Assembly: GCA_012719125.1 (NCBI GenBank)
Contig: JAAYAY010000013.1
Span: forward strand, 1-64,000
DNA from: Planctomycetaceae bacterium
Lineage (GTDB): Bacteria > Planctomycetota > Planctomycetia > Pirellulales > Thermoguttaceae
Direction of reading: 5' to 3'
DNA length: 64,000 nt
A program made the position numbers and the translations under genes. Below are positions 4,352 through 64,000 of the stretch, piece after piece (the first letter of the stretch is position 1; each line of letters opens with the position of its first letter). The notes beneath the pieces are model-generated. The model worked only from the letters and a program-made list of their open reading frames with translations. It was not told the DNA's origin and ran no database searches.

Positions 4352-5818
4352 ATGAAACTCGCATTCAAACTCGTTTCGGTCTTCATGGTCTCGACGATCG
4401 TGCTGACTTCGGCGCACGCCTACTTCGTGATCCAGCGGCAATCGCGGGCTTTCGAACAAGAGGCGGAGGCAGACGCGGAGGCGCTTGCCGGATCGCTCGA
4501 GGGCCGAATTCCGCAGGTGTTGCAGCAGGAGGGCCCTGAAGGGCTGGCAAAGCTGGTTCACAACGCAGAGGTCTACTCGGTCACCACCCGCGTCCGCTGG
4601 GTCTGGTTCGACGCCCAGCCTGGTACTCCTCACAGCCCTTCGGTGCCTCCCGAACAACTTCAAGCCTTCGTCGTGGAACGGTTCGTGTCGATTCCCGCGC
4701 AGGGATCGGACGGTTCGCGTCACCTGTTCACCTACTGCCCGATCGCCGTTGATGCCGAACGGAAGGGGGGGCTGGAGGTGACCCATCCGATGACGAAGCT
4801 GGAGCAGGAGAAGCGAGAGGTCATTTGGCAGACGATCCGGCTCATGGTTTCGATGCTGGTGCTGACGGGCGGGGTGGCCGTGGTGCTGGGGGTGCGGATG
4901 ATCGGCCGCCCCTTGAACCGGCTGATCGAGAAGACCCACCGCATCTCCGCCGGAGATCTGAGCGGACCGATCGTTATGCGCACGGGCGATGAGCTGGCCC
5001 AGTTGGGGAACAGTCTTAACGAGATGTGCGACGCTCTCAGTGCGTCGAAACAGAGAGTTCGCGAGGAGACCGAGGCTCGAACGGCCGTCATGACGCAGCT
5101 TCGTCATGCCGATCGGCTGAAGACCGTGGGCCGGCTGGCTTCGGGCATGGCCCACGAGTTGGGGACTCCGCTGAACGTCGTGTCGGGTCGGGCGGGGCTG
5201 ATCGCTTCGGGGAAACTCTCGCCGGACGAGGTTGCGCGGAGTGCCTCGGCGATCCAGGCCGAGGCCAACAAGATGACTGCCATCATTCGCCAGCTTCTCG
5301 ATTTCGCCCGGCGGAATGCGCCCCACCGCGTCGAGGCCGACCTATGGCGGATCGTGGGCGATACGGTCGAACTGCTCGGGCCGCTGGCCCAGAAACAGAA
5401 TGTGGCGGTCCGCCTGCCCGGCGACCGGGAACCGATGACGGCCTTGGTCGATCCGGCCCAATTCCAGCAAGTTCTCACCAATCTGATCGTCAATGGGATC
5501 CAGGCCATGCCCGACGGCGGCGAGGTCAGGATCTCCGTCGAAACCGAGCTCGCTGCTCCTCCGGGCGACTCGGAGGTTGCTGCAAGGGAGTTCATTCGAA
5601 TCGATGTGGAGGATGGAGGGGTGGGTATCGCCGAATCGGATCTCGACCAGCTTTTCGAGCCATTCTTCACGACCAAGGACGTGGGCCAAGGCACCGGGCT
5701 GGGATTGTCGATCGCTTATGGAATCGTGCAAGAGCACGGCGGCTGGATTGCCGTTAGCAGTCAACTCGGCCAAGGGAGCCGCTTCTCCGTCTATCTGCCC
5801 AAGGAGCCCCGAGCGTGA
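4352..5818 (+). CDS. Sensor histidine kinase (TM–HAMP–HisKA–HATPase; NtrB/AtoS-like)
   Basis: N-terminal TM 'LVSVFMVSTIVLTSAHA'; H-box 'LASGMAHELGTPLNVVSGRAGLI'; HATPase G-boxes 'DGGVGI' and 'GQGTGLGLSIAYGIVQEHGG'. Confidence 0.9.
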   Translation: MKLAFKLVSVFMVSTIVLTSAHAYFVIQRQSRAFEQEAEADAEALAGSLEGRIPQVLQQEGPEGLAKLVHNAEVYSVTTRVRWVWFDAQPGTPHSPSVPPEQLQAFVVERFVSIPAQGSDGSRHLFTYCPIAVDAERKGGLEVTHPMTKLEQEKREVIWQTIRLMVSMLVLTGGVAVVLGVRMIGRPLNRLIEKTHRISAGDLSGPIVMRTGDELAQLGNSLNEMCDALSASKQRVREETEARTAVMTQLRHADRLKTVGRLASGMAHELGTPLNVVSGRAGLIASGKLSPDEVARSASAIQAEANKMTAIIRQLLDFARRNAPHRVEADLWRIVGDTVELLGPLAQKQNVAVRLPGDREPMTALVDPAQFQQVLTNLIVNGIQAMPDGGEVRISVETELAAPPGDSEVAAREFIRIDVEDGGVGIAESDLDQLFEPFFTTKDVGQGTGLGLSIAYGIVQEHGGWIAVSSQLGQGSRFSVYLPKEPRA

Positions 5819-7161
5819 GACCTCTCGTGCTGATTGTCGATGACGAACGCAGCATGTGCGAACTGCTGGAAACGGATCTCAAGTTGCGCCAGTTCGACGT
5901 GGTCTGGCACACGTCGGCGGAGGAGGGCATTCGCACGGTGCTCGAACAGCCGGTCGATACCGTGCTGACCGATCTGAAGATGCCGGGAATTGACGGGCTG
6001 GAGTTCTGCCGGCGGATCGTCGAGAACCGGCCCGACATTCCGGTGGTCGTGATGACGGCCTTCGGCAGTCTGGACACGGCCGTGGCCGCGATCCGGGCCG
6101 GGGCCTACGACTTCGTCACCAAACCGGTGGAGATGGACCTGCTTGCACTCACTCTGCAGCGGGCGGTCGATCACCGCGAACTTCAGGAGAAGGTCAAGAT
6201 TCTCAGCCAGGCGGCGGAGCGAGCGACCCGGTTCGAGGAGTTGATCGGAGCCAGCCCGGCCATGCAGAGGCTTTACGATCAGCTTGCCCGAGTGGCGGAC
6301 ACTGAGACGTCGATTCTCATTACCGGCGAGAGCGGGACGGGCAAGGAACTGGTGGCCCGCTCGCTGCATGCCCGGTCGCGGCGGCGGGACCGGCCTTTCG
6401 TGGCTGTCAATTGCGCTGCACTCCCCGACACGTTGCTCGAGAGCGAGCTGTTCGGGCACTCCAAAGGCGCCTTCACCGACGCGCGGAGCGACCGGAAGGG
6501 GCTGTTTGCCCAGGCGGAAGGCGGAACGCTGCTGCTCGACGAGATCGGCGAGATGCCGCTGGCCATGCAGCCGAAACTTCTGCGGGCCCTGGAGGAGGGC
6601 AAGGTGCGCCCGGTGGGCAGCGATCGGGAGTTGTCGTTCGACGTGCGGCTCGTGACGGCCACCAATCGGGACCTGGAGACGGCCGTCGAAGAAGGGCGAT
6701 TTCGCGAGGATCTGTTCTTTCGCATCAACGTCATCCAGCTCGACATGCCGCCGCTGCGGTCGCGAGGGACCGATACGCTGCTTCTGGCCCAGCATTACCT
6801 CGAGTTGTTCGCCGCGCGAGCGGGCAAGGCGGTCGAAGGGCTTTCAGGGGCGGTGGCCGAGAAGCTGCTCAACTACTCGTGGCCGGGGAACGTCCGCGAA
6901 TTGCGAAACGTCGTCGAGCGGGCCGTCGCCCTGACTCGGTTCAACAAGCTGGCGGTCGAGGATTTGCCCGAGAAGGTTCGCGAATACCGCAGTTCGCAGG
7001 TCTTCATCGGGGGCGACGATCCGAGCGAACTGGTGCCGCTTGAAGAGGTGGAACGCCGTTATATCGATCACGTGCTCCGAGCCGTCGACGGCAACAAGAC
7101 GGTTGCGGCACGCATTCTCGGGCTGGACCGGAAGACGCTTTATCGGAAGCTGCAGCACTGA
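5815..7161 (+). CDS. Sigma-54-dependent response regulator (NtrC family: REC–AAA+–Fis HTH)
   Basis: REC 'VLIVDDERSMCELL...DLKMPGIDG'; Walker A 'GESGTGKELVARSLH'; GAFTGA-type loop 'GAFTDA'; C-terminal HTH 'TVAARILGLDRKTLYRKL'. 4-bp overlap with the kinase gene. Confidence 0.92.
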   Translation: MRPLVLIVDDERSMCELLETDLKLRQFDVVWHTSAEEGIRTVLEQPVDTVLTDLKMPGIDGLEFCRRIVENRPDIPVVVMTAFGSLDTAVAAIRAGAYDFVTKPVEMDLLALTLQRAVDHRELQEKVKILSQAAERATRFEELIGASPAMQRLYDQLARVADTETSILITGESGTGKELVARSLHARSRRRDRPFVAVNCAALPDTLLESELFGHSKGAFTDARSDRKGLFAQAEGGTLLLDEIGEMPLAMQPKLLRALEEGKVRPVGSDRELSFDVRLVTATNRDLETAVEEGRFREDLFFRINVIQLDMPPLRSRGTDTLLLAQHYLELFAARAGKAVEGLSGAVAEKLLNYSWPGNVRELRNVVERAVALTRFNKLAVEDLPEKVREYRSSQVFIGGDDPSELVPLEEVERRYIDHVLRAVDGNKTVAARILGLDRKTLYRKLQH

Positions 7162-7166
7162 GGCGC

Positions 7167-7300
7167 GGGTGGCACGCCCAGAGCGGAGCGATGGGCGTGG
7201 ATACTCAGGTCACCACGCCCATCGCTCCGCTCTGGGCGTGCCACCCACGAGTGATGACCAGACCATCCACGCCCATCGCTCAGCTCTGGGCGTGCCACCC
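7167..7300. repeat. Three copies of a REP-like hairpin element (stem CACGCCCA/TGGGCGTG, 11-nt loop); one inverted, two direct
   Basis: Copy A 7167-7200 'gggtggcacgcccagagcggagcgatgggcgtgg'. Copies B (7213-7246) and C (7267-7300) are its reverse complement 'ccacgcccatcgctc[c/a]gctctgggcgtgccaccc'. They sit in the convergent gap between the NtrC-like gene and the MBL gene. Confidence 0.65.
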
Positions 7301-7314
7301 ACGAATAGTCGAGG

Positions 7315-8262
7315 TTAGAACAGCCGAGCCTGCCAGGGGCGGTCGAGGGGCCAGGCGTCGACGCCGCGCCGGCGGAGGCAATCGACGAAGGATTCCGGCC
7401 CGTGGGTGCAATAGACCTTCTTGGCGCCGACCCGTTGGACGGCTTCGAACAGATCGTCGTAATCGGCGTGGTCGGAGAGGGGCAGGGCGTGGTCGACCTT
7501 GAGGCGGTACTTGGCTCGCGGATCCTGGGCCCAGCCTGTCAGGGCAAACCGTACTACCGGGCCTTTTAGATCGACGCTATGGCCGGGCGGCACGACGACC
7601 ACTTCACCCGGTTCGAGTTGGCCCGCCCAGCGGCGATAATTGCCCAGGGGCACGCCAAGCTGTTCGTAGACCTGGCTGATCGGGTAGACCAGGCCGTGTT
7701 GGACGACGGGGAAGCCGGCGCCGGTGAGAATACGAGTGACCTCTTGGGATTTTCCCAAGGCGTAGGCGACGACCATGGGGGCGGCGCCGCCGGCGATCGT
7801 CTTCTCGACCAGTTCGAGGAACTGGGCGACGACCGAATCGCGATCGGGCAGCCGGTATTCGGGCGAGCCGAACGTGCTTTCGAGGACGAAGATGTCGGCG
7901 GGAACCAACTCAGCCGGTTCGGCGGTCAAGGAGGGCCGGAGTTGGAAGTCGCCCGAATAGAGCAGCGACTGGCCCGCGTCTTCGGCCAGCAGCATGGCCG
8001 AGCCGAGGCAATGTCCGGCGGGGTAGGTGGTGAGCCGCACGCCGCCCCAATCGACCGGCTCGCGGTACGGCAGTTCGCGAACGGGTCGTTTCCCCAGCCG
8101 CAGATGGTAGAGGGCCGCCGTAGCGGGCGTGCACAAGGCGTATTGATGGCGCGCCATGTGGTCGGCGTGGGCATGGGAGATGAAGGCCCGAGGCTGTCGC
8201 CGGCGAAAGTCGATCGCCAGGTCGGGTGTGGTCAGTTTGAGCCCGCCGTCCCAATGAAACAC
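7315..8262 (-). CDS. MBL-fold metallo-hydrolase (beta-CASP-like)
   Basis: Metallo-beta-lactamase motif 'ISHAHADHM'; C-terminal 'LSDHADYDDL...YCTHGPE' resembles beta-CASP motifs B/C. Confidence 0.75.
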   Translation of the reverse strand: MFHWDGGLKLTTPDLAIDFRRRQPRAFISHAHADHMARHQYALCTPATAALYHLRLGKRPVRELPYREPVDWGGVRLTTYPAGHCLGSAMLLAEDAGQSLLYSGDFQLRPSLTAEPAELVPADIFVLESTFGSPEYRLPDRDSVVAQFLELVEKTIAGGAAPMVVAYALGKSQEVTRILTGAGFPVVQHGLVYPISQVYEQLGVPLGNYRRWAGQLEPGEVVVVPPGHSVDLKGPVVRFALTGWAQDPRAKYRLKVDHALPLSDHADYDDLFEAVQRVGAKKVYCTHGPESFVDCLRRRGVDAWPLDRPWQARLF

Positions 8263-8264
8263 GT

Positions 8265-8954
8265 TTAGCAGGCCGACGCCGCAGGGGCTTCCTGTGTGGA
8301 CCTGATCATGTCGATCAACGGCATGGTCAACTGGACCAATTCGACCACGGAATTGACTTCCAGCTTGCGCATGAGCCGTGCGCGACGATCTTCGACGGTC
8401 CGGATACTCAGATTCAGTTGAGCGGCGATCTCTTTGTTGAACATCCCTTCCAGGATCAGGGCCAAGACTTCGCGTTCTCCCGGCGCGAGCTTGGATACTC
8501 GCTGCTCACCGTCGGTTCGGCCGACGCGTTCTTTTCGCCGTTTGCGATCCAGATCCAGGGCGTGGCGGACACTTTCCCAGAGTTCCTGTTCACGGAACGG
8601 CTTTTCCAGGAAATTGACGGCCCCGGCCTGCATCGCCCCCACCGCCATCTGCACGTTGGCGTGACCGGTGAGAAAAACGATAGGCAACTGAATACCCCTG
8701 TCGACAAGCGTTCTTTGCAGTTCGAGTCCACTCATGCCCGGCATGGCAACATCCAGGACCAGGCAACCCGGGCGACCATTTTCGTAGGCGTCCAGGAATT
8801 CGGCGGCCGATTCAAACGCCTGAACGTAAGGAAAAATCGCCTCCAAGAGACTCGCAATCAAACGTCGTGACGCAGCATCGTCATCGACCACATAGACCGT
8901 GGATGTCATCTCCTCGGTCATCCGCGCATGTTCGTTTGGCAGCAGCATCGCCAC
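8265..8954 (-). CDS. Response regulator, REC + LuxR/FixJ-type HTH
   Basis: REC 'VYVVDDDAASRRLIASLLE...LDVAMPGMSGLEL'; LuxR HTH 'LAPGEREVLALILEGMFNKEIAAQLNLSIRTVEDRRARLMRKL'. Start could be GTG 8954 or ATG 8948/8921. Confidence 0.85.
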   Translation of the reverse strand: MAMLLPNEHARMTEEMTSTVYVVDDDAASRRLIASLLEAIFPYVQAFESAAEFLDAYENGRPGCLVLDVAMPGMSGLELQRTLVDRGIQLPIVFLTGHANVQMAVGAMQAGAVNFLEKPFREQELWESVRHALDLDRKRRKERVGRTDGEQRVSKLAPGEREVLALILEGMFNKEIAAQLNLSIRTVEDRRARLMRKLEVNSVVELVQLTMPLIDMIRSTQEAPAASAC

Positions 8955-9741
8955 ACTCGTTCATCTGGGAAGAAAAGGTGTCCGATTTCGGGCAATCGTG
9001 ATGATGTGAAAAGGTGGATCCCAGTCGGCCCAAACCACCGCGACCCACAGACGCCGTTGAGCGTGAAAGCCCCATACCACGTGGTACGCACAGACACACC
9101 CGGACAACCTCTGTCCGACAGGTACGCCTCTGTTGCTTCGCTCGCCCCAAAAAGACTCTCTGCATCACGTCGCCATACGCAAAGGATCGCCTGCCCTACC
9201 AACGTGCCCTCGCCTGACTCGGCATCATCCCAGCCAAACGGGGCGGTGGCTCTCCCAAATCCTGATGGAATATAACAGATCGACGCGTCGGACGTAAACA
9301 CCGGCTATGGAAATTACTGCTTCCCTCCCTCTTCGTGCGGTTCCCATCGAGCAGCCGCCCTTCCCTTCGTCAACCGTTTGGAGTAAATTCGCGCAAACCG
9401 ACTCCGGGCGTAGTCTTGTTTCCGTTTTTCCGTGACGAATGCTGCGTGTAAACCATTCACCTCCAACGGGTTGCGGCCGAAACGAACCGAATTGCCGTGG
9501 GCGTGTGGAATCTGGGCTGGGATTTTTCTCCCCCCCTGGTGTGGCACTCACATGGACAGACCAACACAGTTACCTCCCCTATCATGGTGGAACGCCGCAA
9601 TCGCTAGCCGTGGTGTCTCCCGGCACGTTCAGTACCGTTTTTTCTTCTGACTGACAGTTGCCACATCCCTGCCGAAGACGTGAGAGGCAACCGCCAAGCG
9701 AATCGTCCCGCTTCTCCAACACTCTGTCAGAGGTCCAGCCA

Positions 9742-10716
9742 GTGCCAAAAATCAAGCGAATTCTCGTGACCGGCGGTGCCGGCTTTCTGGGTTCCCATCT
9801 CTGCGAACGATTGGTCGAGCGAGGCCACGACGTAATCTGCCTGGACAACTTCTTCACCAGCCAGAAATCAAACGTGGTACATCTTCTCGACTACCCCAAT
9901 TTCGAACTGATCCGCCACGACGTGACTCTGCCGATCTACCTCGAGGTGGACGAAATCTACAATCTGGCATGTCCGGCGGCCCCAGGCCACTACCAATACA
10001 ACCCGATCAAGACCCTCAAGACCTCGATGGCGGGCGCCATCAACGTCCTGGGAATGGCCAAGCGCTGCCGGGCTCGGGTCTTTCAGGCTTCCACCAGTGA
10101 GATTTACGGCGACCCTGAGGTTCACCCCCAACCGGAATCGTATCGCGGCTCCGTCAATCCCATCGGCCCAAGGGCCTGCTACGACGAAGGCAAGCGAGCC
10201 GCCGAATCGTTATTCATGGACTACCACCGCATGAACCGCGTGGATATTCGGATTGTACGGATTTTCAATACGTACGGGCCCCGAATGCATCCTTTCGACG
10301 GACGGGTGATATCGAACTTCATCCGTCAAGCTCTCCAGCGAGAGGACATCACCCTTTTCGGAGACGGCAGCCAGACTCGCTCATTCTGTTATCGGGACGA
10401 TATGGTGGACGGCTTCATTCGCATGATGGAAAACGAAGAGGGCTTTATCGGTCCGGTGAACTTAGGCAATCAAGGCGAGTATACCATTCGCCAACTGGCC
10501 GAAACCGTGCTGGAATTGACCTGCTCGAAGAGCAAGATCGTTTACCGCGACTTGCCGGCCGACGATCCGAAGAGACGACGTCCCGATATCAGCCTAGCCC
10601 GGGAGAAGCTTGGCTGGCAGCCGACGGTTTCCCTTGCCGACGGTTTGGCCAAGACAATCCAGTGGTTCCAGTCCATCGACATCGGCGACTACCGGCCGCC
10701 CACGCCAAGCTACTGA
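9742..10716 (+). CDS. UDP-glucuronate decarboxylase (UDP-xylose synthase), NAD-dependent epimerase/dehydratase family
   Basis: Rossmann '[34 protein letters not shown]' and catalytic 'YDEGKRAAE'. GTG start at 9742 (RBS 'gagg') gives 324 aa; the track ATG at 9658 adds an implausible R-rich 28 aa. Confidence 0.85.
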
Positions 10717-56146: not shown

Positions 56147-57469
56147 ATGCCCCGACGCAATCTACGCGTTCTCGTCCTGGCGTTGCTGGTGTGCCTCCTC
56201 TGCGCGCCACGCGTCTCCCGATCCGGTCGCGTCCTCTGGTTTGCCATGCGCCACATCGAGGCCCACTACCTCACCTCCGTCGACGAAGAAAAACTGTTTC
56301 AAGGGGCCATGGACGGGATGACGAAGGCATTGGGCGACCCCTATTCAGCCTATATTCCCCCCGAAGTTCTCCCCGAATTCAATGAGCAAATCGATCGCCA
56401 GTTCGGCGGGCTGGGAATCGAGATCCGGATCGACCACGATACCAAGTACCTTACCGTCGCCAGCCCACTCGTTGGCACGCCGGCAGCCGAGGCCGGTCTG
56501 CTTGCCGGCGATCGAATCCTGCGAATCGATGATGAAAGCACTCAAGGCCTTTCCATCGAGGACGCCGCCAAACTGCTTCGCGGCCTGCCCGGGGAACCGG
56601 TGACGCTGACCATCTCGAGGAAGGGTGCGAAAGAGACTCGCCAGGTTGAGGTCGTTCGTGCCGAGATTCAGGTCGGTACGGTGTTGGGAGACACGCGCGA
56701 TGCGGACGGCTCCTGGAACTACTACCTCGACGGGTATCCCGGAATCGGATACCTGCGACTCGATTCTTTCGGCGAGAACACCGGGGCGCAGATGCGCGAG
56801 GTGATCGCCGATCTGAAGAAACAGGGCCTGAAAGGTCTGATTCTGGACATGCGGGGCAACCCGGGCGGCCTGCTGCCCGCGGCAATCGACGTCTGCGACC
56901 TGTTCGTTTCTCCCGACGATCCCCCCTCGACCGGGCCCGGCGGTGAACACATTTCGTCCGGCCTGATCCTCACGACACGCGATCGCCGGGGACAGGTGAT
57001 CCAGGAATTCTACGCCCATGACGACGGAACCGTGAACGGCTTTCCCATGGCCGTGCTTGTCAACGGGGAGAGTGCCTCGGCCGCCGAGATCGTGGCCGCT
57101 TGCCTTCAGGATCACGGCAAGGCGATCGTCGTGGGGGAACGCTCGTTCGGAAAGGGCACCGTCCAGGAGATTCTCGACTTTCACCCGGACCAGGGGCTCC
57201 TCAAGCTGACCATGGCCAGTTATTGGCGTCCCAGCGGACGGAACATCAACCGCAGCGAAGGCGCGCAGGAATGGGGCGTATCGCCTAATGCCGGTTTTGC
57301 GGTCGCCCTCAACGATGAGGAACGGGTCAATCTTGCCGTCGCGCGGCGGATGCGCGACGTAGCCGAGTCCTACACCGACGAAGAACTGGCCGCAGAAGAA
57401 GTCCCCGAGTTCAACGATCGCCAGCGCAATGCGGCCGTCGAGTGGATCGAGGATCAGATCTCGAACTGA
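56147..57469 (+). CDS. Carboxyl-terminal processing protease (S41 family, CtpA/Prc-like) with PDZ domain
   Basis: Signal 'LVLALLVCLLCAPRVS'; PDZ 'LAGDRILRIDDESTQGLSIEDAAKLLRGLPGEPVTLTI'; S41 'GLILDMRGNPGGLL', catalytic Ser 'VLVNGESASAAEIVAACLQDHGKAIVVGERSFGKGTVQ'. Confidence 0.9.
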   Translation: MPRRNLRVLVLALLVCLLCAPRVSRSGRVLWFAMRHIEAHYLTSVDEEKLFQGAMDGMTKALGDPYSAYIPPEVLPEFNEQIDRQFGGLGIEIRIDHDTKYLTVASPLVGTPAAEAGLLAGDRILRIDDESTQGLSIEDAAKLLRGLPGEPVTLTISRKGAKETRQVEVVRAEIQVGTVLGDTRDADGSWNYYLDGYPGIGYLRLDSFGENTGAQMREVIADLKKQGLKGLILDMRGNPGGLLPAAIDVCDLFVSPDDPPSTGPGGEHISSGLILTTRDRRGQVIQEFYAHDDGTVNGFPMAVLVNGESASAAEIVAACLQDHGKAIVVGERSFGKGTVQEILDFHPDQGLLKLTMASYWRPSGRNINRSEGAQEWGVSPNAGFAVALNDEERVNLAVARRMRDVAESYTDEELAAEEVPEFNDRQRNAAVEWIEDQISN

Positions 57470-60315
57470 ACGCTGCCGACGTTGTCGGCTACGATCGTGG
57501 TGATCCCGGTGATGTAGAACCCGCCTTCCAGGTTACCCGAAGCGTCGTTGCCCACGATCAGGTTGTCGTTGGCCGTGCCGTACTCCGACACGCCAAACTT
57601 CTGCGTCGTCCGGCTGCCGCCCGTCCCGATTGTGTTGTCGGCGACAAGGACAAACGTGCAATTGACCAGCAAGATACCGCTGAAATCCCCCGTTCGACGC
57701 AGGGAATTGTCGACGACGGTGTTCCGGTAAATCGCGTTGTCGCTGCCTCCGTTGACCAGGATGCCTTCCCGGGCATTTCCGCGGATGAGATTGTCGGCCA
57801 CGGTATTGAACATGTCGGCGAAGGAGCCACCCAGACCCAGGCCGCCCACGCCGTACCTCCCGTTGTCTTCCAGCACGTTGCCGGTGACGAGAATGTCGAA
57901 ATTGTCGAAGCAGAAATGGAAGCCGTTGTCGCCGTTGTTACGGCTGACGTTGTTGATCCAGAGCCCGCCGCGATTCAAGTCGCCTCCGGGGTGCAAACCG
58001 TGGCGACGGCTCCCTACGACCAGTGAATTCTCCACGATCACGTCGCTGCTTCCCGCGACTAGAATCCCGTCGCCGGAATCCCCCCGGGTCGCGTAGCCCG
58101 CCTGGCGGATGGTCGCTCCGGAAATCACGGCGTCGGCTTCCACGTTGACGAGGATGCCGTGTCCCCGGACCTTCTCGATGGTAACGTTCTCGATGCGATT
58201 GTCGTGTCCGCCCGTGAGATAGATCCCGCCGCCGTTGGATTCGCGGACGGTCACGTTGCGAACCGCGCCGTCGACCGCCTTTTCCAGATGAATGAGCGCT
58301 GGACTGGCGAGACGCCAGGCCTCGGAGAGTTCGTCCAGGTTCCCGTCGAGAGTCAGGTCCTCCACGACCACGTCCGCCGTCGAGCCGGCTTCGTAGTACC
58401 AGGCGGTGCGGACCAGCGGGAAGTAGTTGACCACGCTGGCCGTGGCGACCGGCGCGTACGTTCCGACAACGGCAATCGGACTGTCAAGATAGAGCTTGCC
58501 GGACTCGATCTTCACGATCGTGTGGCATGCCACAGCACTCTGCCCGTAGGCCAGAATCGCAATGTCGTCGCCGACCGTGAAACCCTTGGTTGATTCCACT
58601 TGCACAAACGTCGCGCCGGTGGCTGCCGTGACCGTGAGCCGCGTCTCGACGTGGTCGGGACGCTCGAGGATCGTCTTCTCCCCTGCTCCGCGCAGGGTCA
58701 CGCCGTCGCGTAGCACAAGCCCCTGCCGCAGGGTAAACGTTCCCTCGGGAAGAACCACCACGCCCCCTTCCTCGGGCAAGGCGTCGATCGCAGCCTGGAA
58801 GCCCCAGGCGGGGTCGCTCGAGTCAAGGAATGCGCTGGCGTAGATCGTCGTTTCCGCTCCCGGACGCTCGACCACAAGCGCGATCCCCGGCTCGGCAACG
58901 TCGACCGTCTGGTCGCCCTCCTCACTCAACCTGGCCGTGACGACGTTAAACCCCTGGGCCCGGCGCACCGTGCCGGACGGATCCTCCGTGAGGGTCACGC
59001 AACGTTCCTCGACCGTAAGGGTGTCGGTGCCGTCCGAATCGTAGACCAGGGCCTCGTCGACCCCCACACTTGCCTTGGCCTGAACGAAGTCAAAGCCTCC
59101 CACTCGGTGCTCGTACCCGGCGCCCCGGAGCCAACTGTGAGTCGAACGGCTTTCGAACGAGTCGGCTCCCGCGGTCCCGCGCAGTTCCGCCTCGTCGTTT
59201 CCGCCCGAGTCGGCATAGGCGTGAACGGAGTCGAACAGCTTGGCGCGGATGAAGTAGTCCTCGCCCAGAAGCTTCCCCCATTCAGAAGTACCGATATAGC
59301 GGTCGTCGCCGGCCGAATCGTGAAGGTTGGCGATATCGTATCCGCCGCCTCGCGCATAGGCGTTGACGACGTCGAATCCATCGGCCCGGTTGATGTACCC
59401 GCTGCCATACAGCGTGGTTTGAGCCGGCGTGCCATGGAGAACGTCGTTACCCGCCGAGTCGACCAGTTCCGCGCAATCGAATCCGCGGCTCGCATAGGCG
59501 GTTACCGAATCGAAACCCACGGCCGCGTTGGAGAAGCCCCGGCCCGACAGGGTCGCACTCTCCGGCGTGGCGCTCAAGTAGTCGTCGCCCGCCGAATCGT
59601 AGATTCTCGCATGGTCGCTGCCGCCGCCCGCATACGCCACCACCTCGCCAAAGAACTTGACTCGGATCGCGTAATTCTCGCCCGACAATCGGCTCCAAGT
59701 TTCCCTTCCCACGAACAGTTCATCGGCATCCGAGCCGGAGATCTCGGCTCGATCGTTACCCCCGGATCGAGCATAGGCGTGCACGTACTCGACCGATTCG
59801 ACGCGAAACGCGAAGCCGTCGCCCGACAGGGTGGAAACGTCCGGGCTGCCGGTGAAAACGTCGTCACCCGCCGAGTCGTTCAGGTACGCTTCGTCAATGC
59901 CGCCGGCATCGGCGACGACCGTCACTTCGCCCGCTCCGGTGGCGACCACCGTCAAACCGTCGGCAACCAGGCGAGTCTCGGCGGGATCGGCGTAGATTGT
60001 GTCGTTGCCGGCCGTATCGTGAAGGACGACGGTGTCGTCTTCTCCGGCGATCAAGGTGATCTCATCAATCGAGTCAACGGCAAACTGCCGGCTGACTCCG
60101 TTCAGCGTGACTCGATATTCGCCGTCGGTGGCGAACTCGAACGCATCCTCCCCGTCCGTGCTGCGGACGGTCAAATGCGTTCCTTCCACGGTGATCTGGT
60201 CGTCGATCGACCACGGCGAAACGGCCAGCAGCAGTCGCGACTCGAGGGGTTCGATCGAGAGCCGCTGGCCGAGGCCCGACCGGCGGGGACGACGGGAATC
60301 CGGGTGCATTCTCAT
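57454..60315 (-). CDS. Secreted repeat protein: planctomycete N-terminal motif, about 7 tandem 37-aa 'DSAGDD' repeats, C-terminal right-handed parallel beta-helix
   Basis: N-terminal 'LSIEPLESRLLLAVSPW'; repeats such as 'AYARSGGNDRAEISGSDADELF', 'AYAGGGSDHARIYDSAGDDYLSATPESATLSGRGF', 'AYASRGFDCAELVDSAGNDVLHGTPAQTTLYGSGY'. Beta-helix 'NVTVRESNGGGIYLTGGHDNRIENVTIEKVRGHGILV...NNGDNGFHF...LIRGNAREGILVNGGSDNAIYRNTV'. Confidence 0.75.
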   Translation of the reverse strand: MRMHPDSRRPRRSGLGQRLSIEPLESRLLLAVSPWSIDDQITVEGTHLTVRSTDGEDAFEFATDGEYRVTLNGVSRQFAVDSIDEITLIAGEDDTVVLHDTAGNDTIYADPAETRLVADGLTVVATGAGEVTVVADAGGIDEAYLNDSAGDDVFTGSPDVSTLSGDGFAFRVESVEYVHAYARSGGNDRAEISGSDADELFVGRETWSRLSGENYAIRVKFFGEVVAYAGGGSDHARIYDSAGDDYLSATPESATLSGRGFSNAAVGFDSVTAYASRGFDCAELVDSAGNDVLHGTPAQTTLYGSGYINRADGFDVVNAYARGGGYDIANLHDSAGDDRYIGTSEWGKLLGEDYFIRAKLFDSVHAYADSGGNDEAELRGTAGADSFESRSTHSWLRGAGYEHRVGGFDFVQAKASVGVDEALVYDSDGTDTLTVEERCVTLTEDPSGTVRRAQGFNVVTARLSEEGDQTVDVAEPGIALVVERPGAETTIYASAFLDSSDPAWGFQAAIDALPEEGGVVVLPEGTFTLRQGLVLRDGVTLRGAGEKTILERPDHVETRLTVTAATGATFVQVESTKGFTVGDDIAILAYGQSAVACHTIVKIESGKLYLDSPIAVVGTYAPVATASVVNYFPLVRTAWYYEAGSTADVVVEDLTLDGNLDELSEAWRLASPALIHLEKAVDGAVRNVTVRESNGGGIYLTGGHDNRIENVTIEKVRGHGILVNVEADAVISGATIRQAGYATRGDSGDGILVAGSSDVIVENSLVVGSRRHGLHPGGDLNRGGLWINNVSRNNGDNGFHFCFDNFDILVTGNVLEDNGRYGVGGLGLGGSFADMFNTVADNLIRGNAREGILVNGGSDNAIYRNTVVDNSLRRTGDFSGILLVNCTFVLVADNTIGTGGSRTTQKFGVSEYGTANDNLIVGNDASGNLEGGFYITGITTIVADNVGSVQFEI

Positions 60316-60824
60316 GGCTGCAATCGCTGAAGTGCCGAAGGGAGGAGCTCTCGCGGGTTCCTTCCCGACTGGCCGCCGCACTCTCCATTCTGATTGGAGC
60401 GCGCAGGAATCTCCAAGGTTTTGTACTGGAGGATGCAAACTCGGGACCGAACAAGAAAGATCCGCCCGTCACCGACTCAGATGCCTAGCCGTTTTGAGGG
60501 GTGAGCAGCCGTGTGCCCGGAAGCAATCGGCACAATCCGCATATTTCGAACCGCAACATCCGAGCAATCGTTCGAATGCCAGCCGTGCGGTCCGTCCCGT
60601 GCCGCGGGCTTTTCGCATACCGGCTCTGCCCGCGAAGCAAGAAGGCAGCGTACTCCGTCCTTGTGTTGCCAAAAGACAACACGCCGCGAAATTCATGCCG
60701 CAGAAGGACTCCCGATTATCCGACCTGCGGCACGGAAACGTTCTATGTTTACTCAGATAGTGGCGTTGTTTCCTCCGCCAGCCAACAAGCAAACACCAAC
60801 CAGTCCCACCACGCGAGGACGGCC

Positions 60825-61385
60825 ATGAAGCCGACAATCATCATCGCAGTATCGCTCATCACCGTGACCGTCATTGCCGTCGGCAGCCTGCAATTCCACC
60901 GAAGCCAGCCGTCCGAAGATCCTGGAATGCCCAAATACGTTCCCTTCTCCGAATCGGCCGCTCCAGTTGCAGACGCGCCGGCACCAGCACCAGCGGACTC
61001 GACTCCAAACCGTCCGACACCTGAAACGCCGGCCGAGACAGACACCAGTCCCATTTCGCCGGCTACCAGCCGGACAGGCCAAAAAGACTGTCTCACGCTC
61101 CTGAGCGTTGCCGAGCGGAGACTGGGGCAATTCGACGACCACGACAAGCGGGCGTGGCGGGTCGAAGTGAAAAACGAGAGCGATCAGAACCGCTATTGCT
61201 ACGTGGAAGTGGAGTGGCTCGATGAAGCCGGATCGCACGTCGACGGCGCCCATACGCTGAGACGGATCGCCCCCGGCACCTGCTCCATTTCCGTGGTCCA
61301 TCCGATGGCCCCGGAAACCGCCGCCAGGGCCAAGTCGATTCGGGTTGTCGAACTTCAAACGCGATCGACGCCCGCGGACGAGTAG
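60825..61385 (+). CDS. Membrane-anchored hypothetical protein (single N-terminal TM, Pro/Ala/Thr-rich linker, small C-terminal domain)
   Basis: 'MKPTIIIAVSLITVTVIAVGSL' TM; linker 'APVADAPAPAPADSTPNRPTPETPAETDTSP'; C-terminal 'WRVEVKNESDQNRYCYVEVEWLDEAGSHVDG'. Confidence 0.5.
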   Translation: MKPTIIIAVSLITVTVIAVGSLQFHRSQPSEDPGMPKYVPFSESAAPVADAPAPAPADSTPNRPTPETPAETDTSPISPATSRTGQKDCLTLLSVAERRLGQFDDHDKRAWRVEVKNESDQNRYCYVEVEWLDEAGSHVDGAHTLRRIAPGTCSISVVHPMAPETAARAKSIRVVELQTRSTPADE

Positions 61386-61762
61386 AACAAGACGGCGGTT
61401 CATGCCCTGTCCTCCTGCGACTGCTCTCCGAACACCTTGCGGTCTTCACAGCGGCCCTCTCGTCGGCGTTTGTATTCTCACGCCGCGCGGAGTTTCAGAC
61501 CGACATTAGCCTCCCGGAACCGCGCGACCGCACCCGAGATTTGTCGGATGACTGTTCGGGTAGCGGACAAACCTGATCGCCGCGCTGCAAGAGTCGCCCT
61601 CGCCATCGTCCGCAGGCGGTTGGCAGCCTGATGCGATTGAGAAACTCGCATCTCGGGGAGAAGGCTAGTGCAGTGGAAGGGGTCGCTTGCTCTCCGCAGG
61701 TCGTTTGGTATCGTAAGACCTTGTACAGTAACACGTTATAGTGTCTTGCGCCGTCCTTTTGC

Positions 61763-61791
61763 TTGACAGATTTCCTGTATTATTGTATTTT
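61763..61791 (+). promoter_or_regulatory. Sigma-70-like promoter (TTGACA-17 nt-TATTTT) for the islet's first gene
   Basis: 'ttgaca gatttcctgtattattg tatttt' in an AT-rich stretch, followed by RBS 'aggaaa' and ATG 61805. Confidence 0.45.
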
Positions 61792-61804
61792 CCAAAATAG
61801 GAAA

Positions 61805-62914
61805 ATGAGTAATTTCAGGAAAACACCTACCGAATCGGACATCCTTGAGCGACTTCGCCGTGGCGAAGTCGCCCTGCCACCGTTGCGTCTGGAAATCGTC
61901 GAAACAGGAAAATGGTCCGACCGGGGATCGGCCGTGTGGGACGCTGTTGTTGTTGCGTCGTACAACGACCAACAGGCTGAATTCGTCGTCGAGTGCAAAG
62001 CCCTGTCGACTCCAAAGGGATTTGACGACGCCGTTCGGCAGTTTCAAGGCCAGCCATTGCCGTCTGACGCCCTGCCGATGGTGATCATGCCCTATCTGCG
62101 TGAATCTCAACTCCGAGAGCTGGAGGCACTGGGGATCAGCGGCGTGGATCTGTGTGGTAACGGCATCGTCGTGGCCCCGGGGCGTTTCACCGTGTCTCGG
62201 ACTGGTGAAAAGAACCAGTTTTCGACGTATTCGCCGATTAAGAATATCTACCGCAAGAACTCCTCGATGGTCGGCCGAGTGTTTCTTGCAACGCCTTTCT
62301 TTGAGAGCGTTCAGCAGATCCGTGAGTCGATCAACGCCAGAAACCTGCTTCTGTCGCGTTGGAGGAAGACACCAATGGGGCTGAGCACCGTCTCAAAGGT
62401 GCTCAAGGTGCTTGAGGAGGATCTCATTGTCGAACGAAGCCAACGAATTCGGCTCCTCCAGCCGGATAAGCTGTTGGAATCCTTGAAAGACAATTTTGTT
62501 CAGCCAAGCGACCCGCCTCGGATTCGGCTAAAACTCGAAGGTGATAGGGCAACCTTGTTGCGGCTGCTGACGGAGCAAGCCAACGCGGCCTCGGTTCCCA
62601 TGGTAGCGACTGGCTTGTCGTCCGTTTCGCGGTATGCCGTCATGCAGCGAGAAGACATACTGTCGGTCTACTGCCCACGAATTGCAGCCTTGCGAGAACG
62701 CCTGGACGGCAAGGCGACCGACCGATTCCACAATGTCGAGTTGATCGAGACCGACGAGCAGCCCCTGTATTTCGACACGCGGGAAGCGGACGGGTTTCAT
62801 TGGGCGTCACCAGTGCAAACGTTCCTTGAACTCACGGCGGGCGACAAACGCGACAAGGAAACCGCTGAACAGGTGAAAGCCCATCTTCTCCGCAGCTTGG
62901 GAGTCACGGATTGA
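61805..62914 (+). CDS. Hypothetical protein with N-terminal PD-(D/E)xK nuclease-like motif and central wHTH-like segment; upstream partner of the AbiEii-like gene
   Basis: 'GSAVWDAVVVASYNDQQAEFVVECKAL' shows D...E-x-K spacing typical of the PD-(D/E)xK fold. 'LSTVSKVLKVLEEDLIVER' is wHTH-like. 4-bp ATGA overlap with the next gene. Lower GC than the rest of the window. Confidence 0.55.
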   Translation: MSNFRKTPTESDILERLRRGEVALPPLRLEIVETGKWSDRGSAVWDAVVVASYNDQQAEFVVECKALSTPKGFDDAVRQFQGQPLPSDALPMVIMPYLRESQLRELEALGISGVDLCGNGIVVAPGRFTVSRTGEKNQFSTYSPIKNIYRKNSSMVGRVFLATPFFESVQQIRESINARNLLLSRWRKTPMGLSTVSKVLKVLEEDLIVERSQRIRLLQPDKLLESLKDNFVQPSDPPRIRLKLEGDRATLLRLLTEQANAASVPMVATGLSSVSRYAVMQREDILSVYCPRIAALRERLDGKATDRFHNVELIETDEQPLYFDTREADGFHWASPVQTFLELTAGDKRDKETAEQVKAHLLRSLGVTD

Positions 62915-63780
62915 TGAACCTCATGCCGACGCTTCAGAGGGCGCTGACCGACGTCCTCTACGAGACAAAGGACGAGGCACTGCGACTGATCGTTGGCGGC
63001 GGTTACGGCATCTACCTCAAACGAGAATACGTCCGAGACAATGGGATTCGGACACTACTGCGTGAGTGGCCGGAAGCCCAATCCACGAACGATCTCGATC
63101 TCTTCTTGCCGCCGGAGTTGCTCGTCGATTCAGCACGATTGAAGCCGCTTGGGTCGGCGCTCCAGCGTCTCGGTTACAAAGTCATCCGTGGAGCGGAGAA
63201 ATTCCAGTTTGCCAAACTGGGACCGGACGGGGGACAGGCGGGTAGCCTCAAAATCGACCTATTGACAGGCCCCAGAAGCAGTTTCGCAGGGACTTCCGCC
63301 CGAGTCGACGAAAGGCGAGTTCGGCCACGTCCGTCAGTCGATGTCCATGCACACCCGGTCGATGAAGCATTGACACTCGAAGAAGGACTGTTGCCCCTGA
63401 CGCTCCATGGCGTCACGAGCGGCGGCATCGCCCATGATGCGACGGTGTACGTCCCGCATCCGCTGACATTCACCATGATGAAGCTGTTCGCATTTCGCGA
63501 CCGGCTGAACGACGAAAGCAAGGATTTCGCTCGCTATCATGCGCTGGACATCTATACGGTGCTGGCCACCACCACAGAGAAGGAGTGGGATGAGGCATTG
63601 GAGCTGAGTGAGACCTACCATGCGGCACCCGTCGTCATCGAAGCTGCCCAAGTCGTGAAAGACCATTTCGCCGGCCAGGACAGCCTGGGAATGCTGCGGC
63701 TCCGAGAGAGTCCATACGCCAGGCCGGAACTGCAACTGGGAGAATTCCTCGATGCGTTGCAAGAGCTTCTTCTGTCGTAG
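62911..63780 (+). CDS. Nucleotidyltransferase-fold protein, AbiEii/AbiGii toxin-like
   Basis: 'IVGGGYGIYLK...(about 25 aa)...NDLDLFL' fits the NTase 'hGG...DhDh' motif of the AbiEii family. 'KLFAFRDRLNDESKDFARYHALDIYTV' matches the AbiEii C-terminal 'K..R...aRDlYDl' motif. Confidence 0.6.
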   Translation: MMNLMPTLQRALTDVLYETKDEALRLIVGGGYGIYLKREYVRDNGIRTLLREWPEAQSTNDLDLFLPPELLVDSARLKPLGSALQRLGYKVIRGAEKFQFAKLGPDGGQAGSLKIDLLTGPRSSFAGTSARVDERRVRPRPSVDVHAHPVDEALTLEEGLLPLTLHGVTSGGIAHDATVYVPHPLTFTMMKLFAFRDRLNDESKDFARYHALDIYTVLATTTEKEWDEALELSETYHAAPVVIEAAQVVKDHFAGQDSLGMLRLRESPYARPELQLGEFLDALQELLLS

Positions 63781-63922
63781 ATCGGCTGGAACATCAAGTT
63801 AACCGGCTCCTCCCGAGGCATCATCGTACCCAAGCAGACCCGCTCTCCTCGCACTCGCTGAAGACCGTAGAAGTCCACTGCGTCGCACGGAATTGCTCCT
63901 CATGTCTCGGGTTACCTGCCTC

Positions 63923-64000
63923 TCACCCCGTCTCCAGGATGTAGGTGGGCAGGTTCACGCCTCGATAGGGTTGATGAGGACCGAGGGTCTGGCCGAAGTG
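63923..64000 (-). CDS. 3' end of an unidentified minus-strand gene running off the window edge
   Basis: Open frame from the window edge ending '...VNLPTYILETG*'; GC returns to the high background. Too short to identify. Confidence 0.25.
   Translation of the reverse strand, partial: HFGQTLGPHQPYRGVNLPTYILETG

Follow-up and report, generated by a model that had tools for sequence, protein, structure and literature searches.

A divergent AbiEi_2/COG4861-type gene pair with a conserved promoter-operator in a Planctomycetaceae contig

Introduction

Do two overlapping genes, here called A and B, on contig JAAYAY010000013.1 of a Planctomycetaceae metagenome-assembled genome (MAG; GCA_012719125.1) form a toxin-antitoxin system, and if so, of which class? 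The window analysed consists of positions 1 to 64,000 of this contig, and the two genes lie on its forward strand. They are a divergent AbiE/MenAT system of the AbiEi_2/COG4861 type that is missed by current models and, by analogy with characterised relatives, they probably function as a self-contained, horizontally mobile toxin-antitoxin operon of the abortive-infection type. The domain combination of protein A is already standard for its class; the additions of the present analysis are the anatomy of the pair, an operator conserved across phyla, and an association with bacteriophage exclusion (BREX) loci.

Gene layout and linkage

61805-62914, + strand: gene A, 369 amino acids, AbiEi_2-type (COG4861-like) putative antitoxin and autorepressor
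62914-63780, + strand: gene B, 288 amino acids, nucleotidyltransferase, putative toxin

The two open reading frames (ORFs) on one strand that had been described in an earlier sequence-only reading of this DNA are confirmed. The ATGA overlap claimed for them is wrong at this locus, where the stop codon of A (TGA, 62912-14) and the start codon of B (ATG, 62914-16) share one nucleotide in TGATG, or overlap as TTGA if B starts at the TTG at 62911. ATGA is, however, the norm of the family. Among the best 80 loci encoding B, 75 have upstream sequence; A lies directly upstream of B on the same strand in all 75, with the 4-nt ATGA overlap in 52. A and B are thus an obligately linked, translationally coupled, self-promoted two-gene unit.

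The conserved start of A is the ATG at 61805; the alternative start offered by the ORF-finding tool, the TTG at 61763, coincides with the -35 box of the promoter. Some gene calls for A on the same contigs (P0124, L001, L003) are trimmed to 278 amino acids, which removes the N-terminal domain. Public calls for A, including that of the source MAG, often begin at the internal M92 (~278 amino acids) and drop residues 1-91 (61805-62080), as in P0124, P0241, P0269, P0326, P0330, P0340, P0350 and P0375. These miscalls are probably due to a start codon without a Shine-Dalgarno sequence and a near-leaderless mRNA, and their effect is to hide the nuclease-like domain from annotation. The exact B protein is labelled 'hypothetical' in a Planctomycetaceae MAG.

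Affiliation with the AbiEi_2/COG4861 class

Protein A had been judged not to be a recognisable AbiEi antitoxin, a judgement that does not survive comparison at the level of the family. Of 32 relatives of A, 25 match PF09952 (AbiEi_2) at E<0.1, several of them with at least 21 bits, and the match maps to residues ~230-369. The profile of A aligns over 351 columns, its full length, with a 367-amino-acid Sphingobium pBSY17_2 protein (WP_083217230; hhalign probability 99.2%, E 7.5e-20), which scores 36.8 bits against PF09952 and is named 'type IV toxin-antitoxin system AbiEi family antitoxin' by the Prokaryotic Genome Annotation Pipeline. Its gene overlaps by 4 nt with that of a 285-amino-acid PF08843 'AbiEii/AbiGii toxin' (WP_069067151). 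The N-terminal domain is covered by this alignment, and both D...ExK and D-x-x-GN are conserved there.

Proteins that match PF09952 are generally ~350-370 amino acids long and have a similar N-terminal domain, and the length of A and its overlapping downstream nucleotidyltransferase gene fit this AbiEi_2/COG4861 layout. The profile of A is matched at E<=1e-3 by 1684 representatives clustered at 50% identity, and nearly all of the best 150 cover positions 1-367. Because PF09952 proteins share the length, the N-terminal domain and the full-length alignment, the three-domain architecture is the norm of the class, and what had been proposed as a new variant combination is its ordinary layout. The distinction of A from canonical AbiEi (COG5340) stands; A is nonetheless a homologue of AbiEi_2. 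The profile and PADLOC searches that had been suggested as a check gave a divided result: neither A nor B reaches the curated thresholds, and the families match PF09952, PF12281 and PF08843. A limited literature search found no description of a PD-(D/E)xK domain in COG4861 antitoxins, an absence that is no proof that the domain is undescribed.

The Sphingobium pair resembles A-B in its ~360-amino-acid three-domain antitoxin, its overlapping downstream gene for a nucleotidyltransferase of ~285 amino acids, and its repeated TTTCxx half-sites upstream. It differs in that identities are only 25-28%, A and B do not reach the PF09952 and PF08843 cutoffs, B is nearer to PF12281, and the half-site is TTTCCT in A-B and TTTCAC in pairs of the Sphingobium type. 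MenA2-MenT2 of Mycobacterium tuberculosis (Rv0837c/Rv0836c) is another example of the class; the sequence comparison here rests on the Sphingobium pair, for which a search against the Protein Data Bank (PDB) gave no matches beyond an artefact from polyubiquitin repeats and noise from FomA. On pBSY17_2 (L084, 3851-8942) a 'DNA repair exonuclease' gene comes next after the pair, on the same strand, and overlaps by 4 nt with a large hypothetical gene; the four genes may be one unit.

Domains of protein A

61805-62209, + strand: PD-(D/E)xK (Mrr_cat/NucS-like) domain of A, residues ~1-135
61940-42, 61991-93 and 61997-99, + strand: codons of the A triad D46, E63 and K65
62252-62482, + strand: winged helix-turn-helix of A, residues ~150-226, with the invariant recognition-helix residues T195-V-S197-K198
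62492-62911, + strand: AbiEi_2 (PF09952) domain of A, residues ~230-369, putative toxin-binding module

The structural model of A (predicted local distance difference test, pLDDT, 85) has three domains. The first has the alpha-beta-beta-beta-alpha-beta core of PD-(D/E)xK proteins, in which D46 opens beta2 and E63-x-K65 lies in beta3, and its Foldseek matches include PaqCI, FokI, MspJI, EndoMS and Card1. Residues 17-109 of one relative (P0475) match Pfam Mrr_cat with 27.1 bits, above the threshold of 21. The PD-(D/E)xK-like N-terminus followed by a winged helix, as proposed from the sequence, is therefore supported both by the model and by a relative, and the motif quoted for it is present (W45-D46-AVVV...E59-FVV-E63-C-K65).

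An intact triad raises the question of whether the roles might be reversed, with A as a PD-(D/E)xK nuclease toxin and B as a modifying antitoxin, as in the type VII system MntA-HepT. D46, E63 and K65 are intact in the source A and in 104 of 119 close homologues (87%), the fold is like that of NucS, Mrr and restriction endonucleases, and nucleotidyltransferase antitoxins do exist (MNT/HEPN). Against this, the triad is lost in ~36-46% of representatives clustered at 50% identity, whereas the active site of B is invariant, A has a putatively autoregulatory winged helix and is encoded first like most antitoxins, and the nearest structural relatives of B are toxins (MenT1 and MenT3). MntA-HepT shares with A-B the two-gene form and a nucleotidyltransferase fold on the antitoxin side; its nucleotidyltransferase is active and its toxin is a HEPN RNase, whereas the nucleotidyltransferase-like domain of A has no catalytic dyad and the partner, B, is itself a nucleotidyltransferase. 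Reversed roles are on balance improbable.

Catalysis by the nuclease-like domain is a separate matter. The loss of D-E-K in many distant relatives means that it is not a requirement of the whole family; it is possible in the source A, judging from its residues, and a role in binding, sensing or oligomerisation fits the domain better. Other positions are more constant: D115-x-x-G118-N119 is kept in 136 of 138 of the 50%-identity representatives, and R158, S197, K198 and R349 are invariant even in relatives of 29-49% identity.

The C-terminal domain of A has a nucleotidyltransferase-like fold, with MenT1 among its top structural matches. The absence of a conserved DxD dyad makes it a probable pseudo-enzyme. 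Comparison of A with B by hhalign found no homology, so paralogy between this domain and B is not detectable. Neither AbiEi nor Rv2827c ranks among the top structural matches of A, and its family profile found nothing meaningful among PDB sequences. The linker P144-IKNIYRKNSSMVGR-158 (62234-62278) is invariant in the subfamily, has a pLDDT of ~40 at residues 142-149, and may be an interaction peptide. One locus (L062) has, at 6990-8204 on the - strand, another A-like gene, which is highly divergent, complete in architecture and has ExA in place of ExK; this gene lies convergent to B and is not paired with a nucleotidyltransferase gene.

Protein B, a nucleotidyltransferase

63085-87, 63091-93, 63097-99 and 63481-83, + strand: codons of the key B residues T58, D60, D62 and K190

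The AbiEii/MenT-like nucleotidyltransferase with intact catalytic residues that had been read from the sequence is borne out by an alignment of 200 sequences and by a structural model. The motifs quoted are present (G28GGYG32, N59-D60-L-D62-L, K190LFAFRDR197 and A206RYHALDIY214); G28GGxG, T58, D60, D62, D115, R134, R135, H145, D196 and D212 are invariant in 200 of 200 homologues, and K190 is kept in 199. Nucleotidyltransferase motifs I (hG[GS]), II (DhD) and III (K...R) are all present and invariant, and K190-L-F-A-F-R-D-R197 matches KLxAaxxR, which is motif III of COG4849 (PMC3985639). T58 stands two residues before the first catalytic aspartate (T58-N-D60), the same spacing as in the autophosphorylation acceptors of MenT3 (S78/D80) and MenT1 (T39/D41) (PMC7450476, PMC11375011). 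Fifteen of 32 members of the B family match PF12281 (NTP_transf_8), two of them at its cutoff, and five of 32 weakly match PF08843 (AbiEii; best E 4.4e-4). The AlphaFold model (pLDDT 90) is nearest to ANT(2'')-Ia, MenT3/Rv1045 and MenT1 (Foldseek E 5e-5 to 8e-4); the family profile found nothing meaningful among PDB sequences. On the strength of the motifs, the fold and the acceptor position, B is almost certainly an active pol-beta-type nucleotidyltransferase and a distant member of the AbiEii/MenT lineage.

ANT(2'')-Ia is the best Foldseek match of B, and one member of the B family weakly matches Aminoglyc_resit, as might be expected if B were an aminoglycoside or lincosamide nucleotidyltransferase conferring resistance and A its transcriptional regulator. 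Such a function is very improbable: B has the motif III specific to COG4849/DUF1814 and the [S/T]-x-D phospho-acceptor, its partner is a homologue of AbiEi_2 antitoxins, the hosts are mostly MAGs from anaerobic sediment or groundwater, and B has no plasmid matches.

A conserved promoter-operator upstream of A

61763-61768, + strand: -35 element TTGACA; CTTGAC or CTTGCA stands equally far from the start codon in ~60 orthologous loci
61771-61777, + strand: operator half-site 1, TTTCCTG, between -35 and -10
61786-61793, + strand: -10 element TATTTT (61786-91) fused to half-site 2, ATTTTCC (61787-93); inverted repeats I5/I6
61799-61806, + strand: operator half-site 3, AGGAAAAT, in the opposite orientation to half-site 2; abuts and overlaps the ATG

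A sigma-70-like promoter had been proposed at this site. As a bare consensus match, TTGACA-17-TATTTT, with the 17-nt spacer of the source locus, does not exceed the chance expectation (1 match against 0.9); the promoter is accepted as real because its position and sequence are conserved upstream of A in ~60 loci from many phyla. Alignment of the 65 nt preceding the A start codon at 66 loci gave the consensus gCTTGCa/CTTGAC - ATTTTCCTr - ~8 nt - cTATTTTCTTG - aa - CAGGAAAATG, of which the last element, CAGGAAAATG, is almost universal. The inverted repeat TTTYCYT-N2-9-ARGAAA occurs in 49 of the 66 upstream regions and in 48 of 17878 control windows (0.27%), and the half-sites TTTCCT/AGGAAA number on average 2.5 per upstream region, compared with 0.08 per 63-nt control window. 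This operator cassette is a new addition of the present analysis.

The -10 box ends 13 nt on the 5' side of the ATG of A, from which it is predicted that the mRNA should be near-leaderless. An operator conserved over the -10 box and start codon makes autorepression of the operon by the winged helix of A likely, in keeping with AbiEi, which has been shown to autorepress through its winged helix-turn-helix (PMC3985639, PMC7319586). Distant AbiEi_2 loci have the same layout with the half-site TTTCAC/GTGAAA and a different recognition helix. Variants of the operator were noted in L007, L013, L019, L023, L025, L028, L036, L042, L044 and others. In Anatilimnocola sp. NA78 (L007, ~4700-4805) the arrays are duplicated in tandem, and in one subgroup the ATG is preceded by an additional AGGAAAAT box, the fourth, brought in by an ~18-nt insertion.

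Distribution and association with BREX

The B family comprises 929 clusters at 90% identity and the A family at least 1377. A and B are 52-87% identical to proteins of Planctomycetota, Cyanobacteria, Chloroflexota, Actinomycetota, Desulfobacterota and others; relatives of B were found in 244 species genomes of a scanned genome collection, and the pair is spread over more than 15 phyla. Its contexts are very heterogeneous: the 150 nearest ORFs represent 154 Pfam families. Recurrent defence neighbours at other loci are canonical AbiEi/AbiEii, MADS mad2, SoFic and BREX, according to raw neighbour counts. Within a few kb of the pair in L088 (10103-10683) and L089 (8147-9796 and 12697-14894) there are genes of a PemK-type toxin-antitoxin system, HTH_3-Peptidase_M78 and DUF499, and these surroundings look like a defence island.

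In Synechococcus sp. PCC 6312 (L086, 1-12519) the pair lies within a BREX operon, in the order BrxC - HEPN - PglX - [A-B] - PglZ - BrxL. The arrangement pglX-[A-B]-pglZ, whole or in fragments, is found also in L037, L017, L021, L030, L045, L049 and L070, making at least eight loci; placement in the BREX operon is complete in L086 and L037, partial in the six others, and absent at the source locus. The flanking PglX and PglZ, which are 40-87% identical across phyla, belong to a type-1 BREX operon. Fragments of PglX and PglZ are at contig ends in L030, L049 and L070, and others have possibly decayed. A survey of BREX loci describes many embedded auxiliary effectors and does not mention AbiE or DUF1814 (PMC12839542), and a limited literature search found no report of AbiE-like pairs inside BREX, which is no proof that they are undescribed.

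These loci bear on two other possibilities. The first is that A-B is not a toxin-antitoxin system: A may be a regulator or nuclease and B a non-toxic nucleotidyltransferase, the two serving as an accessory or back-up of BREX or another defence, or as a pair for modification or repair of nucleic acids. The recurrence of pglX-[A-B]-pglZ in several phyla and the commonness of embedded auxiliary effectors in BREX loci (PMC12839542) speak for such a role, as does MenT2, the toxin partnered with a COG4861 protein, which was non-toxic when tested (PMC7450476). The pair is, however, solitary and without BREX genes at the source and at most loci, it has a promoter and operator of its own, and its anatomy parallels that of proven AbiE/MenAT systems; an accessory module of this kind is unlikely, with a modest chance of being the correct explanation. 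The second possibility is that A combines the functions of sensor, repressor and antitoxin, uses its PD-(D/E)xK-like domain to recognise or cleave DNA that is invading or nicked by BREX, and thereby releases B, which would make the pair a dedicated back-up effector of BREX-type immunity. This too is unlikely, with a rather small chance of being right; if it were true, the subfamily would have spread to more than 15 phyla with a promoter-operator of its own, portable and near-leaderless.

Proposed mechanism and relation to known systems

The toxin-antitoxin function favoured here would operate as follows. B would add nucleotides to the 3' ends of tRNA, as do MenT1, MenT3, MenT4 and AbiEii, and translation would be arrested. 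The C-terminal nucleotidyltransferase-like domain of A would bind B and neutralise it by occlusion, by induced autophosphorylation of T58 in the manner of type VII systems, or by both. The winged helix of A would bind the half-sites over the -10 box, transcription start and start codon, repressing the operon. More speculatively, the N-terminal domain of A may couple the state of the antitoxin to invading DNA, either as a DNA-binding sensor or as an accessory nuclease. The mechanisms of related systems are described in PMC7450476, PMC11375011 and bioRxiv 10.64898/2026.01.19.700257, and by analogy with them the combination of tRNA extension by B, neutralisation by the C-terminus of A and autorepression by its winged helix is reasonably probable as a whole.

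A-B has much in common with canonical AbiE of Streptococcus agalactiae (AbiEi/AbiEii) and with MenA3-MenT3 and MenA4-MenT4 (COG5340 with COG2253): all are bicistronic with the antitoxin gene first, and all have a pol-beta-type toxin in which GG, DxD and K motifs occur and a serine or threonine precedes the first aspartate by two residues. In those systems a winged helix-turn-helix autorepressor acts on inverted repeats of its own promoter, and for A repression is predicted. Unlike COG5340 antitoxins, A has an additional PD-(D/E)xK-like domain at its N-terminus, a winged helix that is internal instead of N-terminal, and a C-terminal domain of nucleotidyltransferase-like fold, and there is no match to the PADLOC models of AbiE. 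Of the features that define canonical AbiE, the overlapping antitoxin-first operon is present; a toxin above the PF08843 threshold and a COG5340 antitoxin are absent. MenT1 of M. tuberculosis, which is of the COG4849 type with a T-x-D phospho-acceptor, resembles both B and the C-terminal domain of A, but MenT1 is much shorter (~190 amino acids) and its antitoxin MenA1 is a peptide of 68 amino acids without DNA binding.

Several observations weigh against the assignment of A-B to this class or against its proposed toxicity. MenT2, the only tested toxin with a COG4861 partner, is non-toxic in M. smegmatis and Escherichia coli (PMC7450476). As a single sequence, A has no match to PF09952 at E<=1 (gathering score 21 bits), a sub-threshold match to HTH_Crp_2, a faint PADLOC match to Csa3 (E 0.02), and no match in NCBIfam. 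Its D-E-K triad is kept in just 75 of the 138 representatives at 50% identity (54%), with D-E-R in 13 more. B scores 19.3 bits against PF12281 (E 0.0012), below the gathering cutoff of 26.3, and has no match at E<=1 to PF08843/DUF1814, none in PADLOC, AbiEii models included, and none in NCBIfam. Foldseek TM-scores for B are just 0.4-0.46, and motifs I and II are ~30 residues apart, compared with 15 in AbiEii (PMC3985639). The profile of B aligns weakly with the PF08843 partner protein (probability 29%, E 6e-4), with the motifs correctly aligned. Finally, most neighbouring genes are unrelated housekeeping genes.

Composition, flanks and horizontal acquisition

An abrupt drop in G+C content and codon usage had been claimed for this region. 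The drop is real and modest: positions 61700-63780 have 56.3% G+C, the minimum of the whole 64 kb, compared with 61.9 +/- 1.8% for 2-kb windows, and G+C at third codon positions is 0.64-0.67 in A and B and 0.70-0.83 in the other plausible genes of the window. The tetranucleotide distance of the A-B region is only in the top 3%, and other regions of the window deviate more. The proposal of horizontal acquisition holds, given the foreign composition and the broad phyletic spread, the latter of which implies horizontal transfer; the A-B module is horizontally acquired. A second stretch of low G+C content (~8200-10700; 56.8% in 2-kb windows) includes an ORF at 9655-10713 with 57.2% G+C.

At the source locus the pair is solitary, between genes for a beta-helix protein and a GNAT acetyltransferase, and the wider neighbourhood consists of housekeeping genes, such as lipA, lplA and smpB. 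No integrase was found near the pair at this locus, no direct or inverted repeats flank it, and the window contains no tRNA genes and no BREX similarity or remnants. Comparison of the flanks with those of related loci, which had been suggested as a way to delimit the insertion, found nucleotide likeness confined to the ~44-nt promoter-operator upstream of A. A phage origin is unlikely, with no matches in GenBank phages and four distant matches in 2.9 million viral contigs; a search of plasmids with B likewise had no matches. A gene on the - strand (57454-60438) encodes a 994-amino-acid beta-helix/NosD-like protein, the N-terminal half of which contains ~35-residue tandem repeats with the motif GGxDxAxLxDSAGxDxF.

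A hairpin at 61630-61652 had also been pointed out. Its 7-bp stem is present at the level of chance: the fold has a z-score of -0.53, and 52 of 200 shuffled sequences fold equally well, for which reason it was discarded. It has no nucleotide conservation in related loci. A scan of 60000-64000 with Rfam found no match, and a terminator-like site at 61685-61701 was rejected as being below the expected frequency.

Significance

The anatomy of A-B and its conserved operator provide concrete experimental handles, and a functional link to BREX is suggested by the recurrent position of the pair between pglX and pglZ. Pfam, NCBIfam and PADLOC fail on a large A-B subfamily, which is a gap in annotation, and as a consequence AbiE-class systems are undercounted in censuses of defence and toxin-antitoxin systems, especially in anaerobic and uncultured lineages.

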